Positions 1,007 through 49,833 of a DNA stretch of 64,000 nucleotides are shown piece after piece. The notes below the pieces were generated by a model, which did not search any database, was not told the DNA's origin, and saw only the letters and a list, made by a program, of their open reading frames with translations. The DNA is taken from positions 50,607 to 114,606 of the forward strand of contig JAWKOJ010000016.1 in assembly GCA_041391245.1 (NCBI GenBank). The letters run 5' to 3'. Made by a program: the position numbers and the translations under genes. Position 1 is the first letter of the stretch. Each line of letters opens with the position of its first letter. This DNA is from Caldilineales bacterium (GTDB lineage Bacteria > Chloroflexota > Anaerolineae > JAAEKA01).

Positions 1007-1687
1007 ATGACCCGCCACAATCTCCTGCGCCAGACATCCCTCTTCGCCGGCCTGACGGACGAGGAACTACGGACGCTGGCTCTCGATCTGCACCGCCACA
1101 CCTTCGCAGCCGGCGTCATCCTCTTCCACCGCGGCGCGCCGGGCAACACGCTCTACCTGATGGAGTCGGGCCGCGTGCGCATCTTCCTCCTCAGCGACGA
1201 GGGCCAGGAGATCACCCTCAACTTCCACGGCCCTGATGACTGCTTCGGCGAGCTGGCCTTGCTGGACGGCATGCCGCGCTCGGCCGGGGCAATCACGCTG
1301 GAGCCGACGGTGGTCTACACGCTGCACCGCGACGACTTCCTGCGCCACCTGCACGCCCATCCCCACATCACTGAGAGCATCCTCGCCATGCTCAGCCAGC
1401 GGCTGCGCCAGTTGACCGACTACACCGAGACGCTGGCCTTTTTGGATGTCTACGACCGGGTGGCTGCCAAGCTGCTCGATCTTGCCGGGCGCTACGGCGT
1501 GGCAGGCGACGGCATCCTCATCGATCTGCCGCTGACGCAGGGCGAGCTTGCCACCTGGGTGGTCGCCAGCCGCGAGCGGGTCAACAAGGCGCTGGGCATG
1601 CTGCGCGACCGCGGCCTGATCGACGTGGACGGCAAGCAGATCACCATCCTCGACCCCCAGGGCCTGCGCCGCCAGATCTATCACTGA
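1007..1687 (+). CDS. Crp/Fnr-family transcription factor (cNMP-binding domain plus C-terminal HTH), paralog 1
   Basis: 226-aa ORF. cNMP-binding signature FGELALLDGMPRSA and C-terminal HTH SRERVNKALGMLRDRGLI. Same length as, and clearly paralogous to, the 17437..18117 ORF. Confidence 0.9.
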   Translation: MTRHNLLRQTSLFAGLTDEELRTLALDLHRHTFAAGVILFHRGAPGNTLYLMESGRVRIFLLSDEGQEITLNFHGPDDCFGELALLDGMPRSAGAITLEPTVVYTLHRDDFLRHLHAHPHITESILAMLSQRLRQLTDYTETLAFLDVYDRVAAKLLDLAGRYGVAGDGILIDLPLTQGELATWVVASRERVNKALGMLRDRGLIDVDGKQITILDPQGLRRQIYH

Positions 1688-1737: not shown

Positions 1738-1753
1738 TGTGACGGCATTCATA
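1738..1753 (+). promoter_or_regulatory. CRP-type box TGTGA-N6-TCATA, extended TCATAGCG
   Basis: TGTGACGGCATTCATA followed by GCG. The same half-sites and GCG extension recur at 16798..16813. In both loci 21 nt separate the box from a weak -10-like hexamer (TATCCT at 1775..1780). Confidence 0.45.
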
Positions 1754-1828
1754 GCGCCGGCGCGCTGCGCGTGATATCCTTTGACTAGATGATCGGTCCC
1801 GCAACCTAGTTTCAAAGGAGGCAACACC

Positions 1829-2212
1829 ATGTCACAGCAAGCAGTCGAGATATTGATTGGAAGAGCGGTGGCGGAAGATGAGTTCCGTGCCACACTGTTG
1901 AGCGATCCGGATGCGGCGCTGGCCGGCCACGACCTGACCGGCTCCGAGAGCGCAGCCCTGAAGGCCATGGACGTCGAGGCCCTGGTAGATTACGCCGGAA
2001 CGCTGGATCAGCGGATCTCCAAGTCCATCGCTATCGGCCCCATGTTCGAAGACGGCACCTGGGTGCCCGACCTCAATCCTGACACCCGGTGTCCGCCAAC
2101 GCCGCCCGTCTCTGGCAGATGCGGCACTACTCCGCCGGCTTCTGATCTGAGACCACTTGCAGCGGCGGGTTGCCAAGTCAGGCAGCCCGCCGCTGTCTTG
2201 TTCCCAACGTGA
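1829..2212 (+). CDS. Small leader-peptide-like protein P1 (NHLP/Nif11-leader-like helical N-terminus)
   Basis: ATG preceded by AAGGAGG. N-terminus AVEILIGRAVAEDEFRATLLSDPDAALAGHDLTGSESAAL is shared with three other small ORFs in the window. The Pro/Thr/Cys-rich C-terminal half has weaker codon bias, so the true end is uncertain. Confidence 0.6.
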   Translation: MSQQAVEILIGRAVAEDEFRATLLSDPDAALAGHDLTGSESAALKAMDVEALVDYAGTLDQRISKSIAIGPMFEDGTWVPDLNPDTRCPPTPPVSGRCGTTPPASDLRPLAAAGCQVRQPAAVLFPT

Positions 2213-2228
2213 CGCCAGGAGATCCACC

Positions 2229-2480
2229 ATGTCACAACACACCGTGCAAGCCGTCATTGGCAAGGCGATCACCGACACGTTGTTCCGCCAAAGCATGTTT
2301 GCCGATCCTGCGGCGACCCTGGCAAGCTATGAGCTTACGCCCGAAGAGATGGACGGCCTGCGCGGATCGACTTCGAGACAATGGAGTGTTGCGCGCGTGC
2401 TGGACGACCGCATCGCCAGGGGGCGATGGTGCGACAAGTCTCTGGCGGGTTCGCACGGAGGCCAGCAGCCGGCGCAATAG
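2229..2480 (+). CDS. Small leader-peptide-like protein P2
   Basis: ATG preceded by AGGAG. TVQAVIGKAITDTLFRQSMFADPAATLASYELTPEEMDGL matches the P1/P3 pattern. Between about 2364 and 2390 the family-like residues IDFETMEC lie in another frame, suggesting two nearby indels. Confidence 0.55.
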   Translation: MSQHTVQAVIGKAITDTLFRQSMFADPAATLASYELTPEEMDGLRGSTSRQWSVARVLDDRIARGRWCDKSLAGSHGGQQPAQ

Positions 2481-2504
2481 CCGCTGTCAAAGGAGAAGTG
2501 ACCC

Positions 2505-3935
2505 GTGACCCAAACGATACCGGTGCCTCGGGCATCCGACCAGACGCCGCCGCCTGACCACCAGCCGCGCTCGCTAGACGGGAGCGCAGACGGGAAGTCA
2601 TTGGCCGCGCATCGGCCGCGGGCAGCCTCCGGCGTCGTCTGCAGCCACCTGGTGGGCCGAGACGGTCCGTACTACATCATCAGAACCGCGGACGCCCGGT
2701 CATATCATCGTCTCGATGCCCGCGATTTCTTCTTGTGGCAGCGCATGGACGGTGAGCACACAGTTGTCGATCTCGTGGTCGCGTACTTCGCCGCCTACGG
2801 CTCCTTTGCGCTGGAGCGCGTCACCGGGCTGACGTCTGCCCTGCAAACCGCCGGGTTTCTGGTGAACGAGCAGCAGCCGGGCGGTGGCCAGACGCCGGTC
2901 CGCGATCCGCGTGAGCGGGCTGCGACCGGCTGGCAGTCGTTTCTCATGAAGCAGTTTGCGGTCGGCGGAATCGACCGGCTCGTGGCGGTCCTCTATGCCC
3001 GCGGCGGTCGGCTGCTGTTCACGCGGCCGGCGCAGGTGTTGTTCGCTGCGGTCTCGCTGATCGGCGTGGCGCTATACGTCCGGCTGTGGACGTCAGCATG
3101 GCGACCTGCAGGCGGCAGCGGCGGCGCTGCCGGGGCGCTGCTGTGGCTGGTGCTGCTCAACCTGGTCTCCATCCTGCTGCACGAGCTGTCCCACGGCCTG
3201 ACGGTCAAGCACTACGGGCGGGAGGTGCGGCGGGCCGGCTTCATGATCTACTTTGGCCTGCCGGTCTTCTTCGTGGACACCACCGACATCTGGCTGGAGG
3301 GCAAGCGGGCGCGGCTGGCAGTCAGTTGGGCAGGTCCTTACTCAGGACTGATCCTGGCCGGCATCTGCGGCATCGTGCTCACGATCTGGCCGGAACTGCC
3401 CATCGGCTGGCTGCTCTTCCAGTTCGCCTTTCTCGCCCTGCTGACCGTGTTCATCAACCTCAACCCGCTGCTGGAGCTTGACGGCTACTACCTGCTGATG
3501 GACTGGCTGGAGATACCGATGTTGCGGCGCAGGTCGCTGGCATTCCTGGGCAGCGGGCTGTGGCAACGGCTGCGCGCCGGGCAGCGATGGTCGCGCGAGG
3601 ATCGCATCTTCGCCATGTTCGGGTTGCTTTCCGCGCTCTGGACCGTCTACGCAGTGGCGGTCGGCATCAGGTTCTGGCAGGGGCAACTGGCCGGCTCGCT
3701 GGACCGCCTGGCTCACAGCGCTGGCGGCGCCGACCTGCTACCTGCGCTGGCCGGGCTGCTGATCAGCCTGGTTTTCATTGCTGCTCTGGGCGTGTATCCC
3801 CTGCAACTGGCGCGGCGCGGCTTGCACCGGCTCGTCCGATTCGGCCGGACGCTCGCCGCACGACAATCCCGTCGGCCGCCAACCCCTCGCCTGACTGATC
3901 CTGGCGCAGATGTCCTGCCCCTCTCCCAACGCTGA
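2505..3935 (+). CDS. M50 (site-2-protease family) membrane metalloprotease with PqqD/RRE-like N-terminal domain
   Basis: GTG start after AAGGAGAAG. HExxH (LLHELSHGL) and NLNPLLELDGYY motifs lie within multiple hydrophobic helices. The soluble N-terminal segment YYIIRTADARSYHRLDARDFFLWQRMDGEHTVVDLV...LQTAGFLV resembles PqqD-type peptide-binding domains; this is recognition from memory. Confidence 0.8.
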   Translation: MTQTIPVPRASDQTPPPDHQPRSLDGSADGKSLAAHRPRAASGVVCSHLVGRDGPYYIIRTADARSYHRLDARDFFLWQRMDGEHTVVDLVVAYFAAYGSFALERVTGLTSALQTAGFLVNEQQPGGGQTPVRDPRERAATGWQSFLMKQFAVGGIDRLVAVLYARGGRLLFTRPAQVLFAAVSLIGVALYVRLWTSAWRPAGGSGGAAGALLWLVLLNLVSILLHELSHGLTVKHYGREVRRAGFMIYFGLPVFFVDTTDIWLEGKRARLAVSWAGPYSGLILAGICGIVLTIWPELPIGWLLFQFAFLALLTVFINLNPLLELDGYYLLMDWLEIPMLRRRSLAFLGSGLWQRLRAGQRWSREDRIFAMFGLLSALWTVYAVAVGIRFWQGQLAGSLDRLAHSAGGADLLPALAGLLISLVFIAALGVYPLQLARRGLHRLVRFGRTLAARQSRRPPTPRLTDPGADVLPLSQR

Positions 3936-4268: not shown

Positions 4269-4289
4269 TGTTGACAAAGTGAGTCAACA
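4269..4289 (+). promoter_or_regulatory. Perfect 7-bp inverted repeat TGTTGAC-N7-GTCAACA (candidate operator)
   Basis: Read directly in the long leader upstream of the first cyclase-STAND gene. Confidence 0.3.
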
Positions 4290-4390
4290 TGGTGGAGTCA
4301 CACAGTCGCTTGCCCGCTTCCGCCGGATGACGGGCAATTCAACGCGTCCGCAGCTTCAATAACACGGCAACCGCCGCCTGGGGTAGAGCT

Positions 4391-7300
4391 ATGACATCAT
4401 TCCAGCCAGACCCGGCCACGACACCCGACATTCCGGTCGGGACTGTCACGTTTCTCTTCACCGACGTCGAAGGCTCGACACAACTGCTGGCGCGACTGCG
4501 CGACCGATACACGGAGCTGCTGGCGGAGCACCACCGACTGCTGCGCGAGATCTTCGCCCGCTGGGGTGGACGCGAGATCGGCACCCAGGGCGACTCCTTC
4601 TTCGTTGCCTTCCCCCGCGCCGGCGACGCCATCTGCGCGGTAGTCGAGGCACAGAGAGGCTTCGCGGACCACCAGTGGCCGGAGGACACCGAGGTACGCG
4701 CCGCATGGGTCTGCACACCGGCGAGCCCTGGGTGGTGGCCGAGGGCTACGTCGGCATGGACGTCCACTGCTGCCCGCATCGCCCACGCCGGCCACGGCGG
4801 GCAGGTCGCTCTCCGAGACGACCCTCGCTGGTCGCCGATGACTCCTGCGGTGTGAACCTGCTGGACCTGGGACGGCACCAGCCAGACATGCCGGCCCGAA
4901 CGCCTCCAGCAACTGGTCATCGACGGCCTGCCAGTGAGTTTCCTCCTCTCATGTCCGAGGCTCTGCCGCCCGCCTATCCCGGCAAGCTGAGCGGCAACGG
5001 CATTCGAACCGGGAGTCGGGGCAGTCCTACCGCGGGCTGGCGGCCTTTCGTGGACGACGCGCCGTTCTTCTTCGGCGCAAGACCTTCACCGAGCAGCTTG
5101 CTGCTTCAGTGCGTCAGCAAGATCTGGTGGCCGTCATCGTTGGCCCTTCCGGCTCCGGCAAGTCGTCGGTGGTTTTCGTGCTGCCGAACTGCTCCAGGAT
5201 GGTGGGTGGCTGGCGGTATCCTTGCGTCCCGGTGGCCGCCTTCCACGCTCTGGGACGCGCTGCTGCTTCATCTGGAGGGAGACCTCAGCGAAGCCGACCG
5301 TCTGATCGAGGTGGAGAAGCTGGCGCGAGCCATGGCAGCGGGCGAATTGCCTCTTCCACATCGTCTTGCGTATCCTGAACCGGCGCCCCGACGTCCAGCG
5401 CCTGCTCCTGGTCGTCGACCAGTTCGAGGAGCTGTTCACCCAGCGGCCGGATCCGGCGGAACAGCGTCAATTCTGGACGAACGCTGCGCCAGCGCGGCCC
5501 AGTCGGCCGGCTTGACCTCGCCGCTGGTGGTGTTGCTCACCCTGCGCGCGATTTATGGGCCAGGCGTGGCCACCGGCCCTTCGCCGACGCACTGCAAGAC
5601 GGCTCGCTGTTGCGGGTCCTGAACCGGGCGGAGTTGCAGGCAGTGGTCGAAAAGCCGCCGAGCGGGCGGCCTTCGAGACCGGACTGGTGTCCCGCATCTG
5701 GACGACGTGGGCGAGGAGCCGGCAACCTGCCGCTGCTGGAGTTCGCCCTGCTCTGGAGCGATGGACCGGGCTGGCTGACCCACGAAGCTACGACGCCATC
5801 GGCCGGGTGGAGGGCGCACTGGCCCGCTACGCCGAGGAGGTCTTCGAAGCGCTGCCCGAACCGCAGCAGCCTGCCGCGCAGCGCATCTTTGTCCAGTTGG
5901 TCCAGCCTGGCGAAGGAACCGAGGACACCCGGCGGGTGGCCAGCCGGGCTGAACTGGGCGACGAAAACTGGCGGTTGGTGCAGCATCTGGCCGACAAACG
6001 GCTGATAGTCACCGGCCGCGACGCGGCAGGTCAGGAAACGGTAGAGGTGGTCCACGAGGCGCTGATCCTGGGCAGCGGCGCGCGGCTGGATCGGCGCGAC
6101 GGGCTTCCGCGCTGGCAGGAGGCTGCGAGCCGCCATGCGCCAGTGGCAGGCCAACGACCGACGAGGGGCGCCGCGCGCGCCGCTGTCCGCCGAGACGCTG
6201 GCCGAACGCGGCGACGAACTCAGCCCGGCCGACGCACTTCATCGAGACAGCGTCGCTCGCCGCGAGCAGCCCGGCGTGAGCGGGCGGCGCATGATTATCG
6301 CGGCTGGCGAGTGCCTGCATCGCCCTGATCCTGCTGAGTGGCCATCTACCAGGGACCGCCACAACACGCTGAGGAGGTCCAGGCCGCTGCCGCTGAGGCG
6401 AACGTGCAAAAAGAGATCGAGGTAGCCGCCGCTACGGCCAGGCAACGCCGAGGCGAGGCCCAGGCGCGCCACCGCCCAGGCACAGACCGACCGAACGTTG
6501 CGGCGAAGAGAAGTCGGCACGCACGCCCAGGCGAACGCAGAGGCAGCGAAGTTGACGCCTGACCCAGCCAGCATCGGTTGGTTCCCAGTCGATTCAGGAG
6601 TTGCAGGTGGATTCCGGAGCGGGCACCACTTCTCGCTTGGAAGCGTTGGAGAACTACCCTACACCCGCAGGCCGAACGTGCTTGGGCCAGGCGGTCTTTT
6701 TCAACCACTTGCACACGTTCTATCCCACGAAGAGTGAACACCGCTTTCTGGTCACCGGATGTACATCGTTACGGCCACGACAAGGTAGCTCGCATATGGA
6801 CGCCGAACGGCGAGGAATTGTTCACCCTTCACCCTGAAGAAAAGGATGTGGGGGTGGGATGGTCACCAGACGGCGAACGGGGGTCATTGAAAACCTGACA
6901 ACCGGTATGGAAGCTTCGACAGGCAAACGCCTGTTTGATCTGACTGGTCACGAGGCAGCATGCATGTACCAAGTTGGTCACCCACTGGCGACCGCATACT
7001 ATCCCCAGCGACGACCAAACAGCCCGGATTTGACGCGCCACGGCGAGGAGTTGGCCGTCTTCAGGACACAACGCGACAACCTGACCTGCGGCCGTTTGCA
7101 CACCTGAATCCGCAGCCTGGTCGACGGTCATGTGGTAACCCACGACTACGCTGGGGAGGTTTTTATCTGGGATCCTGCCACTGGCGAGGAGTTGCTCCAA
7201 CTGCGTGGACATGTCGACTGGGTCAATACCGCCATGTGGGCACGACGGCCAACGGCCGCTACATCCAGCGACGACGCCACGGCAAAGATCTGGGATGCCA

Positions 7301-8565
7301 CCACCGGCGACGAATTGCTCAGTTACCTGGACCAGCGTAATAAATGCCGTCTGGTCGCCGGACAGCACAAGAGTATTGCTAACCTTCGATCTGCCTGATC
7401 CCGCCGTCATGTGGGATACATCCACTGGCGATGAAATCTTCAAATTCCGCGAGCAGATGCCGATCAAGGGAGCCGAATGGTCCGACGATGGCTCCCTGAT
7501 TGTCACATCGGACATTGACGGCAGCACCATGGTTTGGCAGTTCTCGGCAGTCTTACAATCCAGGGAAATGCTGAAGTAAATGAGACAGAATGGTCGCCCA
7601 CGTATGACCAGATACTGACCGCCAGCAGCGAGGCACTGCGAAGGTTTGGGACGTCGCAGATGAATTGACGGAGCAGTGATTCAACGATGGGCCGGGTTTC
7701 GACCGGCTGTTTCCAGCGGCGACGTACGCAGCTACGTGATGCTCGGTCAGGGTATTTGACCGAAACCGGAACGAATTGCTTTGACGCCAACACAGGAAGG
7801 TGTCCAGAAGAGTCGCATCAGTTCCGACACAGTCTCGCCGTCAGGGGAGGAGATTGGGAGTTTACTGGGGCGGAAAGCAGAACCTGGGATGCCAGGACCG
7901 GGGATCCTTTGGGAAGTGACACGCGATACCGATCTGTATGCAGGCGAATGGTCTCCGATGGAACCCGCTTTGCGCTTGGATGGGTCGAGGCGTAATCCAG
8001 GTCTATGATGCCGAACGGCCAAGAGTTGCTTTCGTACGACGGACATCCACCGGCGAAATCACCTGGATGCGCTGGTCACCGGATAGCAGCCGATTTGTGA
8101 CCACGGACAACTCGAGATCAACATTGGGAGCCCCACCGGCGAATTGTCCTTGATCCAAATCCGACAGACACATATCGAGTCACGCTGTCGCGGGTCGGCA
8201 GATGGGAGCGGCTAGGCCTCGGAGACGATGGCGTCCTCTCCATCCGGGACGCCACCACCGGAACCTTGCAGAGTATGCTGGACAAGCACAGGTGACCTGG
8301 ATCGATGTTCCCAGCACAGGATCGATCACCAGCGACAAGGGTAGATCAAGATCTGGGACGTTGAATCCGGTGCAGAAGTAGCGAGCCTCACGTTTCCTGA
8401 CATGTATATGGCGGCGTTGTCGCCTGATGGCCACCAGGTATTGGTCACGACACGCTCTGGACCGATGATCTCTTCGATATCTGGCAGTCCGCGAGGATTG
8501 ATCGACCTGGCGGAGTGCCGTCTTCCGCGACGACCCGAGAACGGCAGCAGTTCGGCTCCGCGTAG
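4391..8565 (+). pseudogene. Class III adenylate/guanylate cyclase - nSTAND1-like NTPase - WD40 repeat protein, heavily frameshifted (copy 1)
   Basis: Homologous peptide fragments are spread over all three + frames. Cyclase: GTVTFLFTDVEGST, GDSFFVAF, RMGLHTGEP, AARIAHAGHGGQV. Walker A: LVAVIVGPSGSGKSSVVF. Also QRIFVQLVQPGEGTEDTRRVASRAELG and WD40 units (SSDDATAKIWDATTGDELL, VWSPDSTRVLL). Family-typical C-terminal ERQQFG is followed by TAG at 8563. Confidence 0.75.
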
Positions 8566-8600
8566 TGAGGCCGAATAGCATCAGGGTTGTGGAGGTACAC

Positions 8601-11600
8601 GAGCGAACAAGCAATCTGGAGCCGGCATCACCCTGTCACGCACGAGGCTCGCACAACGGTTGACGATCATTGCGTCTGCGCAGCAGCTCTGCGGGAGTCC
8701 GCCCGCCCGAGACGGCAAGGGGACGGTGGTTCGCCGACCTGGAGGTGACCGCCCTGGCGACATTGGCCGGAGAGTGCAGGCGCTGCCATGGGGTCACCCG
8801 CGAGCCCGGGGTGCTGAGGTACTCGGCGACGCAGCTGCCTCTCGCCGCGGCCACGAGGTTGCTCTCCGAGACGACGGTCGCTCTGGTGTGCGACGATCTG
8901 CCGGAAGGCGTGCATCTGCTGAACATGGGAAGGCACCAACTCAAGGACATGCGCCGTCCTGAGCAGATCCAGCAACTGGCCATTGATGGCATGCCGAGGA
9001 GTTCCCCTCCGCTCAACTCGCTGGTGTCGCTCGGCCAACCGGTCCTGGCAGCGGATGGCAACGGCGTGCGCGAGCCGCGCACCGTCGGCGCGTGCCGCCC
9101 TACTGCGGCCTGGCAGCCTTCCGCGAGCTGGACGAAGGCGTCTTCTTTGGCCGCGCAGGTGTTCACCGGCCAACTTGTCGACTCGGTGCGGCAGCAAGGG
9201 CTGGTGGCTGTGATCGTCGGACCGTCGGGGTCGGGCAAGTCGTCGGTGGTCTTCGCCGGGCTGCTGCCGCTTGCAGCGCAACGACGGCTGGCTGCTGGCA
9301 ACGCTGCGCCCCGGTGGACGACCGTTCCACGCGCTAAGTCGGCGCGCTGCTGCCGCTGCTGGACGACCAACTGGGCGAGACCGACCGGCTGATCGAGGTA
9401 GAAAAGCTGGCGCGCGCGCTGCGCGCGGGGGAGTTGTCGCTGCACCCGGTGGTGGAGCGGGTCTTGCAGCGACATCCAGACGCCCAACGGTTGCTGTTGG
9501 TCGTCGACCAGTTCGAGGAACTGTTCACCCAACGACCCAATCCCACCGACCAGCGCCAGTTCCTGGACGAGGGCTCGCTGGCAGCCAGCCGGGCGGCATC
9601 CGACCGATGGACATCGCGGTTGGTGGTGCTGTTGACAATGTGCGCTGATTTCATGGGGCAGGCGCTGACCCACCGTCCATTCGCCGACGCCCTTGCAGGA
9701 GGGATCGCTGCTGCTGGGTCCCATGAACCGCAGCGAGTTGCAGGCTGTGGTGGAGAAGCCGGCCGAGCCGCGCGGCGCAGCCTTCGAGACAGGCCTGGTG
9801 GCGAGGATCCTGGACGACGTGGGCGAGGAGCCTGGCAACCTGCCGCTGCTGGAGTTCGCCCTGTCGCTGCTGTGGGAGCGGATGGATCAGGGCTGGATGA
9901 CCCACGAGGCGTATGACGCCATCGGCCGGGTGGACGGCGTTGGCCCGCTATGCCGAGGATGTCTACAGCGGGTGCCGTTTGCCGGCCAACAGGCCGCCGC
10001 CCAGCGCATCTTCATCCAACTGGTCCAGCCGGGCGAAGGAACCGAGGACACGCGCCGGGTTGCCAGCCGGGCTGAGCTGGGCATGACCCGCATTGGCCGC
10101 TGGTGCAGTACCTGGCAGACAAGCGGCTGATCGTCACCGGCCAGGACGACGCCGGTCGCGCAGACGGTGGAGGTGGTGCACGAGGCGCTGATCCGCAGTT
10201 GGCAGCGGCTGCGTTTCCGGATCGGCGCGGATCGGGCCTCCTGCGCCTGGCAGGAGGGGCTGGTGGGCCGCCATGCGCCAGTGGCAGGCCAACGAGCATG
10301 ACGAGGGGGCGTTGTTACGCGGCGCGCCGCTGGTGGCCGCCGAAACCTGGCTGGCCGAACGTGGCGACGAACTCAGCCCGGCCATGAGCGCAGCTTCATC
10401 GAGACCAGCGTCGCCTTTCGCGCCAGCGAGCAAGCCCGGCGTGAGCGACGGCGGCGCATGATTATCGCCGGTCTGGCGAGTGGCCTTGTCATCGCCCTGA
10501 TCCCGCTGGGTGTGGCCATCTACCAGGGGAACGCCGCCACCAACAGCGCTGAGGAGGTCCAGGCCGCTGCCAGCAGTTGAGGCTGAACGTGCAAAAAAAA
10601 GAGATTGAGGTAGCCGCTCGCTCCACAGCCGAGGCACAGGCTTTGATCCAGGCCAGCATCGGTTTAGCATCTCAATCGGTGCTGGAGCCCAACGTGGGGT
10701 TCCAGAGCGTGCCGTTCCCTTTCGGGCTCTTGAGGCTGTGGAGAACTATCCGTATACCTGGCATGCTGAACGGGCTTTGAGCCAGGCTGTGTTCGGAAAC
10801 CATCTACGACAAGTTCTTGTCAACGACGGTGGCGTGAATACAGCCCTCCTTTGGTCACCCGACGGCACTCGACCGTGACGGCAACCGACAAGGAGGCAAG
10901 CATTTGGGATGCCGTAACTGGCGCTCTACTATATGTTCTTCAACCCGATAGTCCAATGTACGGTGCCGGTTGGTCTCCCGATGGGAGTCGCGCTTGGATC
11001 AACGGGAACGGTTTCGCATCGCTTTGGGATGCAATGACTGGGAGCACTTGTTTACACTCAGCAGCCACGAAGGCTGGTTGAGTATGTTGAGCTGGTCACC
11101 AGATGGCAGCCGTATTCCACAACCGGCCAGGATACCACAGCCCGGATATGGATGCTTCCACTGGACAGGAATTGGTCCTTTTTCTCAGGTCATGGTGCAG
11201 CCTCTTTCTTCCTGTGTTAGTCAATGCACACCAGAAACGTCGGCCTGGTCACCCAACGGCGAGCGTGTTGTTACTATGGACGAAGCTGGCGAAGTGTTCA
11301 TCTGGGACCCCGGGACCGGGCAGGAACTGCTCGAATTGTCGGGGCATACAGCGTGGGTCGACAGCGCGATCTGGTCACCGGACGGGCGGCGAATTGCTAC
11401 AAGCAGCGACGACAACACGTCGAGAATCTGGGATGCCAACACGGGCGAAGCAGTTGGTTCAAATACACTGGCGATGGCGGAGAGGCATACGCCAGATGGT
11501 CACCAAAAGGCGATCGAGTGTTGTTGATCTACAGCCTGAACGATCTGTTGGTAGTGTGGGACGCCAATAGCGGCGAGGAGATTGTCAACTTTCGCATCAT

Positions 11601-12817
11601 GAGAACAAGGTTCTGTGGGCCGATTGGTTCGCCGGATGGCTCACGCATTGTTTCGGGAGGTCAAGATGGCAAAGCCTTGATCTGGGACAGCGCCACCGGT
11701 GAGGCATTGTACGAATTCGCAGGCCATGCCAAGGATGTCAACTTCGTCAGATGGTCGCCAACCAACGATCAGATCGTCACAGCAAGCGACGACGGCACCG
11801 CCAAGATATGGAGCCTGACAGCCCAAATGACGGCTATGGAGATTCCGGGGACCCCGGTGGCGCTTGGGCGCTTGACTGGTCTCCCTCCGGTGATCGTGTT
11901 GCCCGGAACTATATGGACGGTTCAGTACACATATTCGACGCCGTGACGGGGGAGTGAGTTGGCAGCCACCGAGGCCCAAAGCGGACGCAATAGGGCAATC
12001 GTGAACGTCGAGTTCTCGCCCCTCGGGAGATGAAATATTGACTGCTGCCATTGGTGGGTTGGCAGCAGTCTATGACGCTAGCACAGGGGAAAAGCGAATA
12101 CAGGTTGGCGAGGAGACGACCTGGGGTTTCAACGATGCTGCCTGGTCTCCCAACGGTAACGAGTTTGCGACCGGCTCCTGGGACGGAAGCGTCCAGATAT
12201 GGAATGCGCAAAACTGGGGACTTGCGCTTGACTTCAACGAACATCGGGGCACCAGTTTCCGGTTGCTTTGGTCACGGCATACGCGAACGTATCGCGTCTA
12301 CCAGCGAAGGCCAGGCCATCATTTGGAACTCCTCGACCGGCGAGGTCTTGGCTAGTCTGTATCCAGAGGACTTCGAATTCGATCTCGGTCAACCTTCCTA
12401 GTCCCCCGATGGCACACGTCTGGCCCCTGCCAGCAGTGGACGGGAAGATCACTATCTGGGATACTGCTACGGGACAATCTCTCAACACACTTCCCGGCCA
12501 GCGGAGCTGCGATCGCGTTAGTCAGTTGGTTTCCAGAACAGGATCGCATCCTGACGTCCGACTGGGGCGGCAACATCAAAATATGGGACATCGCCAGGAA
12601 CAGAAGTTGCCAGCTTTGCTTTTCCCACAACAGCTTGGCAGGTCTTCTGTCGCCCGATGGCCGCCAGTTTGTGGAGGGCGTGTGGCCTGATGGCCCGCTG
12701 GTCATTGTCAATGTCTGGCAGAACCTGGGAAGAATTGAAAGATCTGGCCCAGGAGTGCTGCGTCTTCCGCGACCTGACGTCGGATGAGCGGCAGCAGCTC
12801 TGGTTTGCCGCCGGTAG
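8601..12817 (+). pseudogene. Cyclase - nSTAND1-like NTPase - WD40 repeat protein, frameshifted, start codon lost, cyclase domain partly deleted (copy 2)
   Basis: Fragments across frames: GLVAVIVGPSGSGKSSVVFAGLLP, LLLVVDQFEELFTQ, QRIFIQLVQPGEGTEDTRRVASRAELG. Many WD40 units, e.g. IVSGGQDGKALIWDSATGEALYEFAGHAKDVNFVRWSPTNDQIVTASDDGTAKIW. The 5' end is homologous at DNA level to the N-terminus of the 12857 gene but lacks the ATG. Confidence 0.7.
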
Positions 12818-12856
12818 TGCAGGCCGAATAGCAGACTGCGTTGTGGAGAATTCACG

Positions 12857-15800
12857 ATGTCCGAAGGTACCAATCTGGAAGCGGCGATCGCCGTGCTCGA
12901 AGCGCAACGAACCGTGCTCGGCGATGCAACGGTCGATGCGTCCATCGCTGTCCTGCGCCGGCAACTTGCGGAGTCCCGAAACGGCCCTGCCCGACGAACA
13001 GCGCAAGCTGGTGACGGTGCTGTTCGCCGACCTGGCCGGCTGGACCGCCCTGGGCGAGCAGTTGGACCCGGAGGAGGTGCAGGCCATCCAGCGCGCCTAC
13101 TTCGACGCGGTCACACCGCCCATCGAGCAGCACGGCGGCAGCGTCGAGAAGTACATCGGCGACGCAGTGCTGGCCGTCTTCGGGGTCCCGCAGGCGCACG
13201 AGGACGACCCCGAGCGCGCCGTCCGCGCCGCCCTGGCCATGCAGGACGCGGTCGCTGCCCTGAACACCACGCTCGCAACATCGTCCAACTCTTCCTCTGC
13301 CCTTCTGACCTCTGTTCTTCTGCCGTCTGTCCCTCTGCCACTCTCCCTGCGCATCGGCGTCCACACCGGCCTGGTGGTCAGCAGCGTGGACGAGAGTGGT
13401 GACTTCGTGGTCACCGGCGACACGGTCAACCTGGCATCGCGCCTGCAAAGCGCCGCCGAGCCGGGCACTGTGCTGATCAGTGCGGAGACGCACCGGCTGG
13501 CCGGCTCTGCATTCGAGACGGAAGCTGTCGGACCGCTGGCGGTCAAGGGCAAGGCCGAGCCGGTGTCCGCTTGGCGCGTCCTGGCCATCAAGCCCGCGGC
13601 GCCCAAGCTGCGCGGCATCGCCGGGCTGGACTCGCCGCTGGTCGGCCGAGCGGCTGAAATGACAGCCCTGCGCGAGGCGCTGAACTACCTGCAGCGCGGT
13701 GTCGGCGGCATCGTCACGGTCGTGGGCGAGGCCGGCATCGGCAAGTCGCGCCTGCTGGCCGAACTGCGCAAGTCGCAACAGCTTTCCGACCAGCGACCAG
13801 CGATCACCGTCCACTGGCTCGAGGGCCGCTGCCTCTCGTTCGGCGCCACTATTCCTTACCTGCTTTGGCTGGACGTGCTGCGCAGCGCGCTGGAGGTAAG
13901 CCTGGACGACCCGTCGGAGGAGGTGATCGGGCGACTGCGAGCCTGGACGGAGAACTTTTGCCCGGACCGCATCTCCGACGTCTTCCCCTATCTGGCCCGC
14001 CTGATGTCGCTGCCGCTGGACGCCGAGACCCTGGCCGACCTGACGGAGCTTGACGGGCAGACTCTCAAGCAACGCACCTTCCAGGCGGTAGAAATCGCGC
14101 TGACCTGCGCCGCCTACCGCCAGCCGCTGGCGGTGGTGTTGGAGGATCTGCACTGGGCCGATCCCAGCTCGCTGGAGTTGCTGCAACATCTCGTTCCTCT
14201 GATCGATCGCTCGGCGCTACTCTTGATCCTGGTCTTCCGGCCCCACGCCGACCACGGCTCGTGGATCGTGCGCGAGACCGCCGGTCGTGACTACCACCAT
14301 CGCCACACCGACTTGTGGCTGCAGCCGCTGTCGGCTGCTGACAGCGAGGCGCTGGTGGGCAACCTGCTGCGGGTCGACGCCTTGCCGCAGTCGCTGCGCT
14401 GGCGCATCCTCGGTCGCGCCGAGGGCAACCCCTTCTTCGTCGAGGAAGTGATCCGCACCCTGATCGACATGCAGGCCATCGCCTACGACCCAACCAGCGG
14501 CCGCTGGCTGGCCACCCGCGACCTGGCCGAGGTGCCGATCCCGGAGACGTTGCAAGGGGTGATCGCAGCCCGCATCGACCGCCTGCATGGCGACACCCGC
14601 CATGTGCTGCAACTGGCGTCGGTGATCGGTCGCATCTTTCTCTACCGCGTGCTGGCGGCCATTGCCGCGGAGGAACACGCACTGGACGACAGGCTGCTGG
14701 CCTTGCAGCGGGAGGAGTTGATCCGTGAGCGGGCGCGCATCCCCGAACTGGAGTACATCTTCAAGCACGAATTGACGCGCGAGGCGGCCTACAACGGCAT
14801 CCTCAAGCGCCAGCGCAAGCAGTTCCACCGCCAGGTGGCCGAAGCACTGGAGCGACTCTTTCCCGACAGGGTTGATGAAATGGCCGGACTGCTGGCATAC
14901 CACTGGGAGCGGGCTGAGGAGTTCGACAAGGCGACCGGATGCTTGTTGACGGCCGGCGAGCAGGCGCAGTTTGCCTATGCACTCCACGAGGCCGCCGGCT
15001 TCTACGAACGCGCCTTGCTGTTGCTTGCCGAGGGGCAAGACGCCGATCGCCAGGCGCACGTGTCTGCCAGGCTGGGGATAATCCACCAGACCGCCGGCGA
15101 CTACAAGCGGTCCCGGGCCGCCTTCCAAAACAGTTTTGTCTTCTGGGAGCAGGCGTCAAGCCACTATCTTCAGTGGGGATCCTCCTCGCCCCCGGCTCCC
15201 CATCCGCTCCGCTTTCCTGCAGACGAGCCTGAACGCCTTTGTCCGATTACCATACAAGGGGGCCATAACTGGCGCCTGCTCTATCACCTTTTCCGCGGCC
15301 TAAATCGCTGGTCCTCGGTCATGGATACCAATGCTTTGGCCGACGTGGCAAGTTCATGGGAAGTATCCGAAGACGGTCGGCGGTACCTTTTTGGTCTACG
15401 CCAGAACACGACATGGAGCGATGGCACGAGGGTTTCCGCTGGCGACTTTGAGTATGCATGGCGTTACCGACTCGATCCTGGCGTCGGTGCTGCCATGGCC
15501 CCAATGCTTGATTTCGTCCAAGGAGCGCGAGCCTTTCGTATGGGAGAAGAAACCGACCCCGCCAGCATTGGCGTTCATGCGCTGGATGACGTCACACTAT
15601 CGATAGAAACTGAGAAACCCTTGACTTTGCTGCCATATCTCGTAGCCAACCTACCCACTTACCCCGTTCCACGCCATACCATTGAACGCTACGGTGAGGC
15701 TTGGACCGATCCTGATAATCTGGTGACCAATGGTCCGTTTCGGCTGGAGTCCTGGCGGCGCGGCGAGTCGATGACCGTCGGTCTGGATCCTGGCTACGAC

Positions 15801-16712
15801 CGGCCGGTCTACGGCAACATACGGCAGGTGCAGTTGTACTTCCTGCCTGACGCCGAAGCGGACCTTGCGATGTACCAGGCCGATCTCCTGGATGTGATCG
15901 ATCTGTCAGGTTTCCCGCTGCCGATGTTGGACGATCTCCGAAGGCGTTACAGCGAGGAGTTTCGTACGTTATCCAGCTATGGCCTTGATTGCCTGATCTT
16001 TCAAACCTCGCGCCCGCCGTTCGATGACCCCCAGGTACGCCGCGCCTTCGTTCATGCCGTCGATATCGAAAAGCTGGCCAACAAAGTTCTGATGGGTTAT
16101 GAACTTCCGGCCACTATGGGCCTGTTCCCACCAGGCTTTCCCGGCCATTCATCGGCTAGCGTCCTGGCACACGATCCAGAACAGGCCCAAGCGTTGCTGG
16201 CCAAGGCTGGCTATCCGGCCGGTCGCGGCCTGCCCGTTGTCGAGCTTCTTGCCGGCGGCGCGCCGGGAACCGCGGCGTGGAGCCGTCGCACCGGGTTCAA
16301 CACCGCCATTCTTGATTACGTGGCGACGCAGTGGCGGGAGGTGCTAGGGGCCGACATAGACATCCAACTCATCACGTATCTTGCACTGCGCAGCCGGCTC
16401 AAAGTACTCGTTCCTGACGTAAGATTGACCTTCTTCGAGCCCAACTATCCCGATCCTGAAAGTTTCTTGAGCTTATTCAGCACGTTCAGCCTGTGGAAGG
16501 ATTCTCGCTGCGAGCACCTGCTGGCTGCTGCGAGAAAGGAATCAGACATCGCCAGAAGAATGGCGCTTTTTGAGGCAGCGCATAAACATATCCTGGACGA
16601 GGCAACCATAGTGCCCCTTCTCTACCGGTTGGACTACTACCTGATGAAGCCCTGGAATCGCGTTGGCAAGGGCGGACGGTATTGGCAGGACTTCGTGCTG
16701 CTGCCGCATTAG
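12857..16712 (+). CDS. Class III cyclase - AAA/STAND-type ATPase - TPR - family-5 solute-binding-protein (OppA/DppA-like) domain fusion; one N-terminal frameshift
   Basis: Cyclase motifs KLVTVLFADLAGWT, EKYIGDAVLAVFG and GDTVNLASRLQ; P-loop GEAGIGKSRL. The C-terminal ~480 aa carry SBP_bac_5-like sequence (WSDGTRVSAGDFEYAW, LVTNGPFRLESW). The first ~38 codons (MSEGTNLEAAIAVLEAQRTVLGD...) are in another frame than the rest, with the shift near 12965-12990. In-frame ATGs at 12924 and 12936 are alternative starts. Confidence 0.75.
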
Positions 16713-17436: not shown

Positions 17437-18117
17437 ATGTCTCAGGTGGATCTGCTGCGCAAAGCCCCAATATTCGAAAGCCTCAGCGATGCTGAGCTGC
17501 AGGCGCTGGCTGCCAGCTTGAAGCAGCGAACTTTTGCGCGCGGCGTCGTGATCTTTCACAAAGGAAGTCCAGGGAACTCGCTTTACCTCATCGAGTCGGG
17601 CAAGGTGCGGATCTTCATCCTCAGCGACTCCGGCCAGGAAATCACCATCAACACTCATGGCCCGGAAGAGTGCTTTGGCGAGTTGGCGCTGCTGGATGGA
17701 CTGCCTCGCTCGGCCAGCGCGGTCAGCCTCGACCGCACGACCAGCTACGTGCTCCAGCGAGAAGACTTTCTGGCAATCCTTGAGTCGCATCCGGGCATGG
17801 TGCGCGCAATTCTTGCACTGCTGAGCGGAAGGGTTCGCCACGCGACCGCGTACGCCGAAAGCCTGGCCTTCCTGGATGTCCAGAGCCGGATCGCGGCGAC
17901 CTTGCTGGCACTGGCCGACCGCCATGGCATCGAGCGGGAAGGGATCGAGATCGACCTGCGGCTCACGCAGAGCGATCTCGCGAGCTATGTCGCGGCCTCC
18001 CGCGAGAGCGTCAACAAGGCGCTGGGCTGGCTGCGCGACCAGGGTCTCGTGGAAGTGGACGGACACACCGTCATCGTGCTCGATGCACAAAGACTGCGCG
18101 ATCTGATCCAGTACTGA
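17437..18117 (+). CDS. Crp/Fnr-family transcription factor, paralog 2
   Basis: 226 aa. FGELALLDGLPRSA and SRESVNKALGWLRDQGLV. Paralog of 1007..1687. Confidence 0.9.
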   Translation: MSQVDLLRKAPIFESLSDAELQALAASLKQRTFARGVVIFHKGSPGNSLYLIESGKVRIFILSDSGQEITINTHGPEECFGELALLDGLPRSASAVSLDRTTSYVLQREDFLAILESHPGMVRAILALLSGRVRHATAYAESLAFLDVQSRIAATLLALADRHGIEREGIEIDLRLTQSDLASYVAASRESVNKALGWLRDQGLVEVDGHTVIVLDAQRLRDLIQY

Positions 18118-19267: not shown

Positions 19268-20233
19268 TCAGGATGGCAGATGCTGGGCTGCCGGCAGGGG
19301 CCGCTCCGCCGGAGCGTTGCTGCCAATCACTGCTGGCAGGCTGACGGTGAAGGTGCTGCCCTGATTGATGCCACGACTGGTCACGCGCACGACCCCATCA
19401 TGAGCGTGCACGATGCTTTTCACCAGCGCCAGTCCTATTCCAACCCCGTCGTCGGAACGAGTCAGACCGCGGTCGACCTGGTAGAAGCGATCGAATATCT
19501 GATCGATCTCATCCTTCGATATGCCTATGCCCTGATCGGTGATGGCGATATGGACATAGCCGTCGCGCGCCCAGACACGCAATCGGATCAGGGAGGATGG
19601 CCGGCCACCAGTGGCGTTTCCAGAGGGAGGCGCGCTACGTGCCCTTGACCGGCATCCCGCCTCGAGACCATATTTCACAGCGTTATCCAGCAAATCATCG
19701 AAGGCCTGATGCAGCATCGCCGGGTCGCCCATGATCAGCGGCAGACTTCCTGCGGTTTCTAAGGCCACCGCCCCTCCTGCGTGCTCAATCTGCGGCTGCC
19801 ACTTTTCGACAACGGTCTCGATCAGGGCGTCCAGCGGAACGGGGATCTTGTCGATCGTCCCATTGTCAACCATCTGCAGCTTGAGCATCCGCTCGACCAT
19901 GGACTGCAGGCGCCGGCCCTGTTCCAGAATGACTTCTGCGGCCTTTGCCTGCTCCTTGGTAAGCTCGCCCCAATACTCGCCGCTCAGGGTCTCGGCGTAG
20001 CCAATGATCAGTGTCAGCGGCGACCGGAACTCGTGAGAAACGTTCTGCAATATCTCATCTCTTGACCGCAAGGCGCGCGCCAACTGCACGGTGACGTCAG
20101 ACAACGCCATCCGCAGTACCTCCGGATCCTGTGTGCCGGCCGTTTCACCGGCTAGTGGCGCCTTGATCAAGGCTGGCTTGCGGGCGTCAACCGGCGGTGA
20201 GGCGCCGGCAGCAGAAAACGGTTGCAGAACCAT
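19268..20233 (-). CDS. Sensor histidine kinase (HisKA + HATPase_c) without TM or recognisable sensor domain; no response regulator nearby
   Basis: H-box SHEFRSPLT, N-box DNAVKY, G-boxes DQGIGI and GIGLALV. Confidence 0.85.
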   Translation of the reverse strand: MVLQPFSAAGASPPVDARKPALIKAPLAGETAGTQDPEVLRMALSDVTVQLARALRSRDEILQNVSHEFRSPLTLIIGYAETLSGEYWGELTKEQAKAAEVILEQGRRLQSMVERMLKLQMVDNGTIDKIPVPLDALIETVVEKWQPQIEHAGGAVALETAGSLPLIMGDPAMLHQAFDDLLDNAVKYGLEAGCRSRARSAPPSGNATGGRPSSLIRLRVWARDGYVHIAITDQGIGISKDEIDQIFDRFYQVDRGLTRSDDGVGIGLALVKSIVHAHDGVVRVTSRGINQGSTFTVSLPAVIGSNAPAERPLPAAQHLPS

Positions 20234-20262: not shown

Positions 20263-20565
20263 CTACATGGCGGCCTGGGCGAGCGCAGGGGAATCCTCGG
20301 CCATTGCGAGCTGTTTCAGGGTCGCGTCGGTCACGTGTCGCCCGTGCTGGCGGAAGTCAATCCATTGACCCACCTGACGCGCGAACTGGCTGAAGTCCTG
20401 GGCGCGAATGGTGCCCAGCAGTTCCCACTCATCCTGATTCAGTGTGAATCCTTGACCGAAGAACCCAATTTCGGCTGCCCGGCGCGGGTCGCGCAGGAGT
20501 TGGGCGCGAAACTGATTGTTGATTGCGCCGGCACAAACCAGACGCTCTAATTCGCTATGCCGCAT
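20263..20565 (-). CDS. Small leader-peptide-like protein P4 (divergent member of the P1-P3 family)
   Basis: LERLVCAGAINNQFRAQLLRDPRRAAE...FTLNQDEWELL follows the same pattern as P1-P3. The start overlaps the upstream gene end by 19 nt. Confidence 0.55.
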   Translation of the reverse strand: MRHSELERLVCAGAINNQFRAQLLRDPRRAAEIGFFGQGFTLNQDEWELLGTIRAQDFSQFARQVGQWIDFRQHGRHVTDATLKQLAMAEDSPALAQAAM

Positions 20566-21158
20566 GATTCATCTCCATTCACGATCTGTCCTGGGCTGGA
20601 ACTTTCTGTTGAGGCAGTAAACGCCTGCCAGAACAGAGCTGCGAAACCAGCCAGGATGATGAGGTCTCCTACGCTGAACGCCGTCGGCAGCGGGAAAGGC
20701 GGCGGCACGACGATGGCGTCTGAGAGAAACCTGAGATTGATCTGATCAGCCGGTAGGATGATGTCCTTGGAGCCTTGTCGCAGCGTACCCGCGGGCCAGT
20801 CCGCTATCGTTGTGCCCGGATGAAGTCTGGTCACAGCCTCTTGCGAAATTGGCATGAATCCACCGTTGGAGGCAACCACTACGAAATTGAGCAGGAAGCC
20901 GGCCATCAGCAGGCGCGCGCCAACGTGACGCCAATTCAGGGCACAGAACAGAAACAGCAGAGAATATGACGCCAGGAACAGAAGGCTGCGCCATCCTGCT
21001 CCGCCCCACGCTTGCACCAGAGGAAGCTGCAAGATGAGAGCACAGGGCGCCAACCATAGGGCTCGCAACTCTATCTCAATGGGGCCGGTGGACCTGCGAC
21101 GACCGATCAGGGCGACTGCCGCAAGTATGACCAGGAGCAGCAGCGCAAAGAGCAACAT
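20547..21158 (-). CDS. Polytopic membrane protein, DUF5317-like
   Basis: 203 aa with 5-6 hydrophobic helices. N-terminus MLLFALLLLVILAAVALIGRRR...ELRALWLAP recalls DUF5317; the family assignment is from memory. Confidence 0.6.
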   Translation of the reverse strand: MLLFALLLLVILAAVALIGRRRSTGPIEIELRALWLAPCALILQLPLVQAWGGAGWRSLLFLASYSLLFLFCALNWRHVGARLLMAGFLLNFVVVASNGGFMPISQEAVTRLHPGTTIADWPAGTLRQGSKDIILPADQINLRFLSDAIVVPPPFPLPTAFSVGDLIILAGFAALFWQAFTASTESSSPGQIVNGDESCGIAN

Positions 21159-48419: not shown

Positions 48420-48528
48420 CACGATTCTCCAAATTGTGTCGCTGCCTGTGCAAAAACGACCGCCGGACCTTCTTGGGTCCGGCGGTCGTTTTGGGGCGTA
48501 CCCCCGACAGCGCATAGCCTCGGCCAGA

Positions 48529-49833
48529 TCAGGCCAGCCCGCTCTTGATTACCTTGCCCAGCCGGCCGGCCTCCGTCTTGCGGTGCGGTCCAACCACGGC
48601 AAGGCGTGCACCGGCATCGACGAAGACGCGGCCGGCGACGCGGCGAAGATCGTCGCTGGTGACCGCTTCCAGCCGCTGCACCACCTCTTCGATCGTCAAT
48701 ATCTCCTGGCCCAGCGCGTGCTGCCGCCCGAACCAGCCTGCCACCGACAGGGTGTCCTCCAATCCCATCAACATGCGCCCCTTCAGATACTCCTTGGCTT
48801 CCGCCAGCGTCACGTCGTCCACCGGCTCCTGGCGCAGCCGCACCAACTGCTCGGTGACAGCGTGCAGCGCCTCGGTCAGCCGTCCCGGCGCGACAGCCGC
48901 GTAGACGCCAACTACCCCGGTGTCGGTCAGGGAGCTGGCGTACGACTCGACGGTGTAGGCCAGACCCAGATTCTCCCGTATCTCCATGAAGAGACGCGAG
49001 CTCATTCCCTCGCCCAAAATGACGTTGAGCACGCTGAGGGCAAACCGGTCGGGTCCGTTCGCGAGAAGCCCGGCAAATTGAGCGAGAAATGGCTCTGCTC
49101 AGTCTTCTTGTGGACCACATCGCAGCGTCGCCGCTCCGTCCACAGGGGCGGGCATGCAGGCCAGCCGCGGCGCCGGCTGCCAGTCGCCCAGCAGAGCGTC
49201 GGCCAGCTCGACGGCCCGGTCGTGATTGACATCGCCGGCGATGCTGAGAACGATGTTCTGCGGCCCATAATACTGGCCGAGAAACAAGCGCAATGCGTCT
49301 TCGCTGAGGCCGGCAACGCTCTCGGGGGTGCCGGCCACGTCCCAGCCCAGCGGGTGGCCGGGCCACGTCATGTCCTGCGCCAGGAGACCGACCAACTCTT
49401 CAGGGATGTCCTGGGACGAGAGCAGTTCCTCCAGGATGACCCGCCGCTCCTTCTCGACCTCCGCATTGACCAGCAGGCTGTTGCGCAGCATATCGGCCAT
49501 GACGTCGATCGCCACGGCCAGATGCGGCTTCTGCATCTTGGCCCACAGCACGGTCATCTCCTGGCCGGTGCTGGCATTGAAAATCCCGCCACGCCCCTCG
49601 ATCTCGCGCGCGATGATGTCTGGTGCAGGCCGGCGCGCCGTGCCCTTGAAGATCATATGTTCAACAAAATGAGCAGCCCCGGCATTGGCACTTTCCTCGT
49701 AGCGCGACCCGACAGACAAATAGAACCCCACACCCACAGAGTAGGTGTGAGGCATCGCGCAGCTCAGAATGCTAAGTCCGTTCGGTAATACTGTAGTTCG
49801 CAGTTCCAGCTTCAATCTGTTCCTCGTCGTCAA
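48529..49833 (-). CDS. M16 (pitrilysin-family) zinc peptidase, two frameshifts between about 49040 and 49170
   Basis: HFVEHMIFKG (HxxEH) in ORF 49099..49833. The homologous stretch RRRCDVVHKKTEQSHFSLNLPGFSRTDP is in another frame. It then returns to LNVILGEGMSSRLF... in ORF 48529..49032. Confidence 0.8.

Follow-up and report, generated by a model that had tools for sequence, protein, structure and literature searches.

Why would a bacterium encode tandem leader-like small proteins directly ahead of a membrane protease, with no tailoring enzyme beside them? To address this question, we analysed a 64,000-nucleotide stretch of a Caldilineales bacterium contig (JAWKOJ010000016.1, positions 50,607 to 114,606; hereafter the window), near the start of which two small-protein genes, P1 and P2, are followed by a gene for an M50 (site-2) protease with an N-terminal recognition element (RRE) of the kind associated with RiPPs, peptides that are made on ribosomes and modified after translation. 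The locus is one copy of a conserved Chloroflexota module that comprises a Crp regulator, one to three small proteins of the Os1348/Franean1_4349 family, sometimes an M16 peptidase, and the RRE-M50 protease. We give about an even chance to the proposal that RRE-guided proteolysis, linked to cyclic nucleotides (cNMP), would cut the small proteins at or just after a conserved LDxRISK motif and release an unmodified C-terminal peptide.

Parts of this picture were already known: automated annotation labels both gene types, and the RRE-site-2-protease architecture has been published for daptides, heavily tailored RiPPs whose leader peptidases were so far the only known proteases of this build. What is new is an RRE-M50 branch that pairs NHLP-clan precursors with cNMP sensors and lacks tailoring enzymes; in the literature, we found no description of such a branch and its link to Crp and cNMP. 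If the proposal holds, the module would offer a tractable example of peptide maturation gated by a second messenger, in phyla where few signalling peptides have been characterised, and would assign a function to the unexplained Os1348/Franean1_4349 family.

The RRE-M50 protease

The P1, P2 and protease genes lie on the forward strand of the window, each preceded by an AGGAG-type ribosome-binding site; a GC content of ~63% and the nearest relatives both point to Chloroflexota. The protease gene (2505..3935) begins with a GTG codon and encodes a 476-residue M50 (site-2) protease with an N-terminal RRE, in agreement with the preliminary description of this DNA, which had recognised both the polytopic protease and a PqqD-type domain. 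The catalytic region (3180..3485) contains the motifs HELSH (residues 226-230; 3180-3194) and NLNPLLELDG (residues 318-327; 3456-3485), both conserved in 80 homologues, among which H226, E227, H230 and P321 do not vary and conservation of N318, D326 and G327 is at least 90%. An AlphaFold2 (AF2) model built on these homologues, with a mean predicted local distance difference test (pLDDT) of 86 and a predicted TM-score (pTM) of 0.81, places a β3-α3 domain before a polytopic helical body. By Foldseek, the body matches best the SpoIVFB:pro-σK complex (8vjl, prob 1.0).

The RRE occupies residues 44-115 (2634..2849, forward strand) and was modelled with pLDDT values of 86-97; by DSSP, it comprises three strands (44-51, 54-61 and 67-71) followed by three helices (72-80, 87-98 and 103-115). 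Its Foldseek matches are the lasso-peptide RREs TbiB1 (5v1u/5v1v) and B1 (6jx3), both solved with bound leader (prob 1.0, TMt 0.69-0.77). Pfam PqqD (PF05402) matches 46 of the 80 homologues and Peptidase_M50 (PF02163) 60, and some of them bear the NCBI name "PqqD family peptide modification chaperone". The protein has many relatives: in a representative library holding one protein per 50%-identity cluster, 9650 proteins match at E<=1e-3, a number that falls to 4971 at E<=1e-10 and to 553 at E<=1e-30; many of the relatives are ~1100 residues long. The window protein is a short form, as are its closest relatives (L001, L081), and lacks the C-terminal cNMP-binding domains described below. In long forms (L002-L007, L011, L016, L082 and L083), a conserved region of ~300 residues without a Pfam match lies between the M50 body and these domains (e.g. 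L005:7216-8145).

Among curated models, the best match is the daptide protease family NF041824 (daptide_HExxH; 164 bits against a cutoff of 300), which spans both the RRE and the M50 part (residues 57-396), while NF058609 (YydH/EpeP/LiaK) scored 50 bits over the catalytic core against a cutoff of 225. Daptide and epipeptide membership were both rejected on these cutoffs and on context features. In the daptide protease MpaP, an RRE is fused to the N terminus of a site-2 protease and directs removal of the leader in an RRE-dependent manner (10.1101/2023.03.08.531785). The preliminary description had allowed for an unrecognised class, which does not hold for an architecture already in print. The two systems share the RRE and M50 parts and an encoding beside several small precursor genes. 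They differ in the precursors, which in daptides have a short ELExMEAP leader and a C-terminal Thr that is invariant and here have an NHLP-clan helical domain and no such Thr, and in the neighbours, with cNMP domains and a Crp regulator here in place of tailoring genes; the daptide set (MpaB/C/D/M; DUF-RRE, alcohol dehydrogenase, aminotransferase and methyltransferase) is absent from the window and the related loci. M50 membrane proteases also mature ribosomal peptides in the epipeptide (YydH/EpeP/LiaK) and pearlin (TglG/TmoG) pathways (PMC10885120), but these depend on a radical-SAM epimerase or on PEARL/TglHI chemistry, and none of those genes occurs here.

A further parallel, on structural grounds, is SpoIVFB. 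Like the activity proposed here, it is an M50 protease cutting a soluble, non-transmembrane pro-protein, pro-σK, and it has a cytoplasmic, ATP-binding CBS regulatory domain, to which the cNMP domains of most relatives of the window protease would be analogous. It differs in lacking an RRE, in having a sigma-factor substrate, in that its regulatory domain is of the CBS and not the cNMP-binding type, and in sequence (19% identity).

The small proteins P1 to P4

To establish the true reading frames of P1 and P2, we used as reference a Logan contig (L089, from SRR32022564) that is 99% identical to window positions 1722-3260. Compared with this contig, the window is one G short after 2080 in P1 (CCTGGAC>CCTGAC, in a GG run) and lacks, in P2, a C after 2364 and a GC after 2390 (both in GCGCGC runs) and a G after 2418 (G6>G5). 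Corrected P1 covers 1829..2145 (105 residues, stop at 2143-2145), as against 1829..2212 (127 residues) as read in the window. It ends ...DGTWVPDLNPGHPVSANAARLWQMRHYSAGF (C-terminal sequence ...RISKSIAIGPMFEDGTWVPDLNPGHPVSANAARLWQMRHYSAGF), contains no Cys and is not Pro/Thr-rich. The Pro/Thr-rich tail with three Cys previously ascribed to P1 is a frameshift artefact, because the G missing after 2080 causes wrong-frame read-through, which continues across a GC-rich hairpin at 2159-2196; P1-type orthologues end in H[LV]P[EQ]GA at the stop, and alignment with orthologous loci revealed the matching end out of frame in the window. Corrected P2 covers 2229..2557 (110 residues), as against 2229..2480 (83 residues); it contains AIDFETMECCAR and overlaps the start of the M50 gene, as its orthologues do. 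In the window, the 11 codons that encode AIDFETMECCAR in orthologues are misframed, and tblastn finds IDFETMECCAR in the other frame, so the tail described earlier for P2 does not stand either. "Core peptide" sequences taken from long-read metagenome assemblies can thus be frameshift artefacts and call for caution.

The shared N-terminal pattern noted in the preliminary description for P1, P2 and two further small proteins, P3 (16883..17128, forward strand) and P4 (20263..20565, reverse strand), proved to be a real domain. All four exceed the curated 40-bit cutoff of NCBIfam NF038399, "Os1348 family NHLP clan protein": P1 scores 67.7 bits as read in the window and 69 in its corrected form (represented by the 99%-identical P0305), P2 56.9 as read and 67.3 in the L089 version, P3 59.9, and P4, a borderline member, 40.7. 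A hidden Markov model (HMM) that combined the N-terminal regions of P1, P2 and P3 and was run against the six frames of the window recovered those three and, more weakly, P4. P3 represents a distinct subfamily of 80-81 residues without the LDxRISK junction, whose members (P0342, P0345 and P0348) are conserved over their whole length. Window-read P1 and P2 fall just under the 48-bit threshold of Pfam PF14407 (Frankia_peptide), at 46.6 and 46.1 bits, while nearly all relatives, including P0305, carry a precomputed match to it; close relatives are labelled "Franean1_4349 family RiPP" by NCBI.

P1 matches the crystal structure of Os1348 (6LK7) in sequence (E 1e-3), and the AF2 model of corrected P1 matches it in fold, with 6lk7_A/B/C as the best PDB entries (prob 1.0, TMt 0.61-0.69), followed by LigA-like domains, the borosin precursor SonA and a proteusin precursor. 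The model has helices across residues 3-63 (pLDDT 60-75 in the domain) and a tail predicted to be disordered (pLDDT<50); we used only its top PDB matches, because the overall confidence of this monomer model is low (pTM 0.37). These matches agree with ECOD, which places Frankia_peptide, Nif11 and NHase-alpha in one LigA-like group (PMC12353581). The small proteins are members of the NHLP/LigA-like clan of RiPP-type leaders. Leader-type models, which the preliminary description had suggested applying, gave a divided answer, since NF038399 was passed by all four proteins, while TIGR03793 (NHLP leader peptide family RiPP precursor), with a cutoff of 50.9 bits, gave only 12-18. There is no Gly-Gly site for cleavage of a leader, the conserved domain ending instead in LDxRISK, and the C39-ABC exporter is missing from the window flank and the related loci; on this cutoff and these context features, classical NHLP membership was rejected. 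Also absent here is the ATP-grasp partner that has been reported to accompany graspetide-type families (PMC8939145).

The family prototype, Os1348, is encoded in cluster OS3 of Pseudomonas sp. Os17 and is suspected of being a precursor that a co-encoded HExxH peptidase processes (PMC7726476; PDB 6LK7). The likeness of P1 to Os1348 in sequence and fold does not extend to the partners, which in OS3 are a GNAT protein, a soluble gluzincin/HExxH protein and a SagB-type dehydrogenase, next to an RND efflux pump, with no M50 protease, RRE, Crp regulator or cyclase.

The N-domain, of ~65 residues, ends in a nearly invariant LDxRI(S/T)K, within which L59, D60, R62 and K65 are at least 90% conserved, and its conservation far exceeds that of the tails. 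The tails nonetheless fall into discrete, internally conserved classes of 5, 8, ~31, 38 and 40 residues: [GSAI]K plus three mostly hydrophobic residues (~23 proteins), TGGAGFML, AFAIGIYAGMASAGG...EEGF, MKLLLFLDGVTS..., and the P1-type SIPIGVMxEDGxWV...HLPEGA, respectively. Several loci hold multiple paralogous precursors, three of them in L006. In each of the five loci that were aligned (window, L081, L001, L008 and L002), a 14-16-bp GC-rich hairpin with a weak T-tract (ΔG -34 to -39 kcal/mol) comes directly after the P1-type stop; in the window, it is a 16-bp stem-loop at 2159..2196 on the forward strand, with a ΔG of about -37 kcal/mol. It is likely a leaky terminator or attenuator, or an mRNA stabiliser, that would set the ratio of precursor to enzyme. 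A promoter and terminator consensus scan of positions 900-4500 yielded nothing useful and missed this hairpin because of its weak T-tract. The conserved N-terminal part, the variable but subfamily-conserved C-terminal parts, the paralogues within a locus and the hairpin after the first gene fit a leader/core logic.

The shortest relatives, ~23 proteins of 68-70 residues among P0293-P0343, stop five residues past LDERITK, with tails such as GKMIF, GKIVL, SKVVM and GKIHF; a cut at the junction, if it occurs, would release pentapeptides reminiscent of Phr-type signals. At the other extreme, one very long low-complexity tail holds ~20 copies of GGPGITGDHGIT (L082:7001-7600), and Ala-rich AANAA/AADQAA repeats form the tails at L002:4901-5869 and L005:3901-4416. 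Such very long repeat tails could be multi-copy cores or merely linkers.

Genomic neighbourhood and the cyclic-nucleotide link

To define the conserved surroundings of the protease, we scanned 81 loci encoding its relatives with local HMMs and added three more loci from a peptide query, which returned only 10 loci. In 18 of the 22 distinct non-actinobacterial loci, one to three NF038399-type peptides are encoded within a few kb of the protease, and two of the four peptide-less exceptions have less than 1.2 kb of upstream sequence. This synteny therefore supports a substrate-enzyme relation. The usual gene order is Crp regulator, peptide(s), in some cases M16, and M50. The M16 peptidase, which has Peptidase_M16 and M16_C domains and resembles PqqF below threshold, occurs in nine loci, mostly between peptide and protease; no other additional enzyme recurs. 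Genes of the radical-SAM, YcaO, lanthipeptide, ATP-grasp, SagB and ABC/C39 types do not recur in the related loci with enough flank, and the earlier observation that no radical-SAM, YcaO, LanM-type or transporter gene adjoins the module was borne out in the window. No tailoring enzyme is conserved across the 22 related loci, and hence no sign was found there of the modification beyond proteolysis that defines a RiPP.

The preliminary description had overlooked the cyclic-nucleotide context. Directly 5' of P1 lies a Crp/Fnr-family regulator (1007..1687, forward strand) with a cNMP-binding domain (PF00027, 4e-24) and HTH_Crp_2 (PF13545, 1.4e-18). Its ortholog holds the equal position in L001-L005, L007-L009, L011, L081-L083 and L094, and about 70 of the first 81 related loci have an adjacent Crp regulator. 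The protease itself carries two cNMP-binding domains at its C terminus in 13 of the non-actinobacterial loci and in nearly all of the ~60 actinobacterial ones, and cNMP-binding SpoIIE/PP2C phosphatases neighbour the module in L002, L007 and L094. A cyclic-nucleotide-binding partner has precedent within the same leader clan, in that NHLP/Nif11 systems are accompanied by the cNMP-domain accessory protein TIGR03896, "cyc_nuc_ocin" (Haft 2010, PMC2887384); both the Crp regulator upstream of P1 and the fused cNMP domains gave sub-threshold matches to this model. The module differs from those systems in having no C39-ABC/HlyD exporter, cyclodehydratase or LanM.

Nucleotide cyclases fused to STAND-type modules form a further set of neighbours. 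A cyclase of Guanylate_cyc-AAA_16-TPR architecture, with or without SBP_bac_5, adjoins the module in the window, L001, L008, L015, L081 and L083. In the window, it is encoded at 12657..16712 on the forward strand, directly 5' of P3, and by Pfam comprises Guanylate_cyc, AAA_16, a TPR region and a C-terminal SBP_bac_5 domain; L008, L081 and L083 have the same type of protein beside the module, while in L001, L088, L090 and L092 its place is taken by a cyclase-AAA_16 protein. A second architecture, cyclase-nSTAND1-WD40, directly follows the M50 gene in L002, L094 and, in broken form, the window, where two tandem genes with fragments of Guanylate_cyc, nSTAND1 and WD40 span 4289..12650 on the forward strand. 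A second Crp/Fnr-family regulator (17437..18117, forward strand), a paralogue of the first, lies 3' of P3. In two loci (L013:4937-9909 and L017:4895-9923), the order is double-FHA protein, short-form RRE-M50, peptide, extracytoplasmic function (ECF) sigma factor, peptide and M16, which places the sigma factor inside the module. In the reciprocal test from the peptide side, consisting of four peptide look-ups, P0283 led to the order Crp, peptide, long M50, cNMP-PP2C and cyclase-nSTAND1-WD40.

Two kinds of additional open reading frames (ORFs) were observed among the relatives. In the Actinomycetota loci (L020-L080), two conserved small ORFs lie between the M50-2xcNMP gene and a downstream Crp gene (e.g. 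L021:7996-8205 and L021:8380-8499). The first encodes a Cys-rich protein of ~70 residues (MDCWHCRRTAVGxCRFCGRGICEDH..., with a weak DUF2180 match) and the second a basic peptide of ~40-50 residues (MAEKKITPKAA...ATRVTKR) with a locus-specific short-repeat tail (KKLSH, THKA, QTKR, VQK or KMKT); both may be substrates of the actinobacterial protease branch. In the closest intact relative, a 739-residue protein without a confident Pfam domain is encoded between the Crp gene and the two peptide genes (L081:807-3026); it is absent from the window.

Competing readings and other features of the window

In the mechanism that we favour, the cytoplasmic RRE would dock the precursor through its conserved helical N-terminal domain, and the M50 site would cut at or just past the LDxRI(S/T)K junction, or inside the hydrophobic stretch with Gly/Pro beyond it. 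The product would be a genetically variable but otherwise unmodified C-terminal peptide, and the M16 peptidase, where present, may trim or clear fragments. Control would be exerted on transcription through the adjacent Crp regulator and on the protease through the two cNMP domains fused to most relatives; cyclase-STAND genes lie close by. A regulatory or signalling peptide, or a substrate of regulated proteolysis, is a more likely product than an antibiotic, because of the upstream Crp, the fused cNMP domains and the cNMP-PP2C, FHA, ECF sigma and cyclase-STAND neighbours.

Several observations weigh against this mechanism. The window protease itself lies under the Pfam thresholds for M50 (PF02163, 21.5 bits; gathering threshold, GA, 27.2) and PqqD and under all NCBIfam equivalog cutoffs, and in HMM scans its RRE part drew only TIGR04248 (E 0.015). 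Binding of the RRE to the co-encoded precursors is suggested by synteny only. RREs normally bind an extended leader strand, whereas the P1-type N-domain is a folded helical bundle and Os1348 itself is a stable six-helix dimer (PMC7726476). Some family peptides have no M50 gene nearby: P0327, encoded 19 nt 3' of a cyclase-AAA_16-TPR gene, P0331, beside another, and, in the window, P3 and P4 have none within 8 kb. Tailoring enzymes may also be encoded elsewhere and act in trans, and P1 and P2 are frameshifted in this assembly, which would make the local copy defective if the indels are real.

The peptides without a protease fit a second reading, the main rival, which we regard as doubtful though worth serious attention. 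In it, the small proteins would be regulatory partners that bind and control the cyclase-STAND proteins or Crp, with the N-domain being functional in its own right and no leader, and the M50 protease would remove or activate them, much as SpoIVFB acts on pro-σK and RseP on RseA. P3 and the peptide of the Kouleothrix locus L088 share the P0327-like arrangement with a cyclase-STAND gene; since peptides adjoin such genes where M50 is lacking, the protease is not obligatory for the family, and the association of the peptides with cyclase-STAND proteins is no looser than that with the protease. The resemblance of the protease body to the SpoIVFB:pro-σK complex, the signalling nature of the other neighbours (Crp, cNMP-PP2C, FHA and the ECF sigma factor between two peptides), the far stronger conservation of the N-domain than of the tails and the stable dimeric fold of Os1348 also fit this reading. 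It does not readily account for tails that form conserved subfamilies, including five-residue and repeat-containing ones, and paralogues with different tails in one locus together with the presence of an RRE fit a precursor logic; an adjacent M16 peptidase would be unexplained unless fragments matter.

We also speculate that the module could be one half of a peptide/cyclic-nucleotide loop, a proposal that we put forward tentatively and consider unlikely as a whole. The small proteins, or peptides cut from them, would be ligands of the TPR or SBP_bac_5 (OppA-like) sensors on the cyclase-STAND proteins; the peptide would switch cAMP/cGMP synthesis, and the cNMP would feed back through Crp and the cNMP domains of the protease. 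Short unmodified C-terminal peptides, hydrophobic or five residues long, that proteolysis releases are known from the M50 protease Eep of enterococci and streptococci and from the Phr pentapeptide/Opp system of Bacillus, where they are sensed by TPR-type or SBP family-5 proteins. The five-residue tails and the TPR/SBP_bac_5 domains on neighbouring cyclases recall these systems by analogy only, with differences in that signal peptides, lipoprotein precursors and an RRNPP receptor are absent here and both sensing and export are putative. If such a loop exists, bacteria would have a peptide-hormone circuit of a new kind, one that is widespread in Chloroflexota and that uses different peptides in Actinomycetota.

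That this organism's copy of the module is decaying or does not function, with the frameshifts in P1, P2 and the downstream cyclase genes as real mutations, seems improbable. Four frameshifting indels do fall inside 340 nt of P1 and P2, and the 8.4-kb stretch directly 3' (4289-12650) has stops in all three frames, where an intact cyclase-nSTAND1-WD40 ortholog stands at the equal position after M50 in L002 and L094. Each of the four indels, however, falls within a homopolymer or GC-repeat run, the genes are intact in the near-identical contig L089, and the protease, both Crp genes and P3 are intact in the window. Distant, unrelated genes are split alike: an aldo/keto reductase (18131-18983, at 18.6 kb) is truncated at profile position 117 of 291, and a TgpA-like transglutaminase (46076-48419, at 46.9 kb) is spread over two overlapping ORFs that match TgpA_N 3-178 and 194-330. 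On account of this sequence context and the similar breaks in unrelated genes, we judged real decay of P1 and P2 less likely than assembly error, which is the likeliest source of the indels in these and the split genes; the breaks suggest scattered indel errors of the sort that long-read assemblies typically show.

Least probable and poorly supported, finally, is a conventional RiPP antibiotic cluster with its tailoring and export genes elsewhere in the genome and the M50 protease merely a leader peptidase as in daptides and epipeptides: proteusins, lanthipeptides and borosins do use this clan (PMC12353581), and the models nearest to the protease are those for daptide and YydH/LiaK maturation, but no radical-SAM, YcaO, Lan, ATP-grasp, SagB or ABC/C39 export gene stands beside the module in loci with enough flank, the double-glycine motif and the daptide hallmarks (C-terminal Thr, MpaB/C/D/M) are missing, and the conserved partners are regulators.

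Two further features of the window lie away from the module. P4 lies in a reverse-strand region (19268-24921) and is encoded between a DUF5317 membrane protein (20547..21158) and a HisKA/HATPase_c histidine kinase (19268..20233), 3' of a 1095-residue AAA/TPR/BTAD STAND regulator, a signalling context with no protease. An M16 peptidase query matched two overlapping ORFs on the same strand (48254..49366 and 49099..49833, together 48254-49833), 45 kb from the module, which may represent one frameshifted gene.

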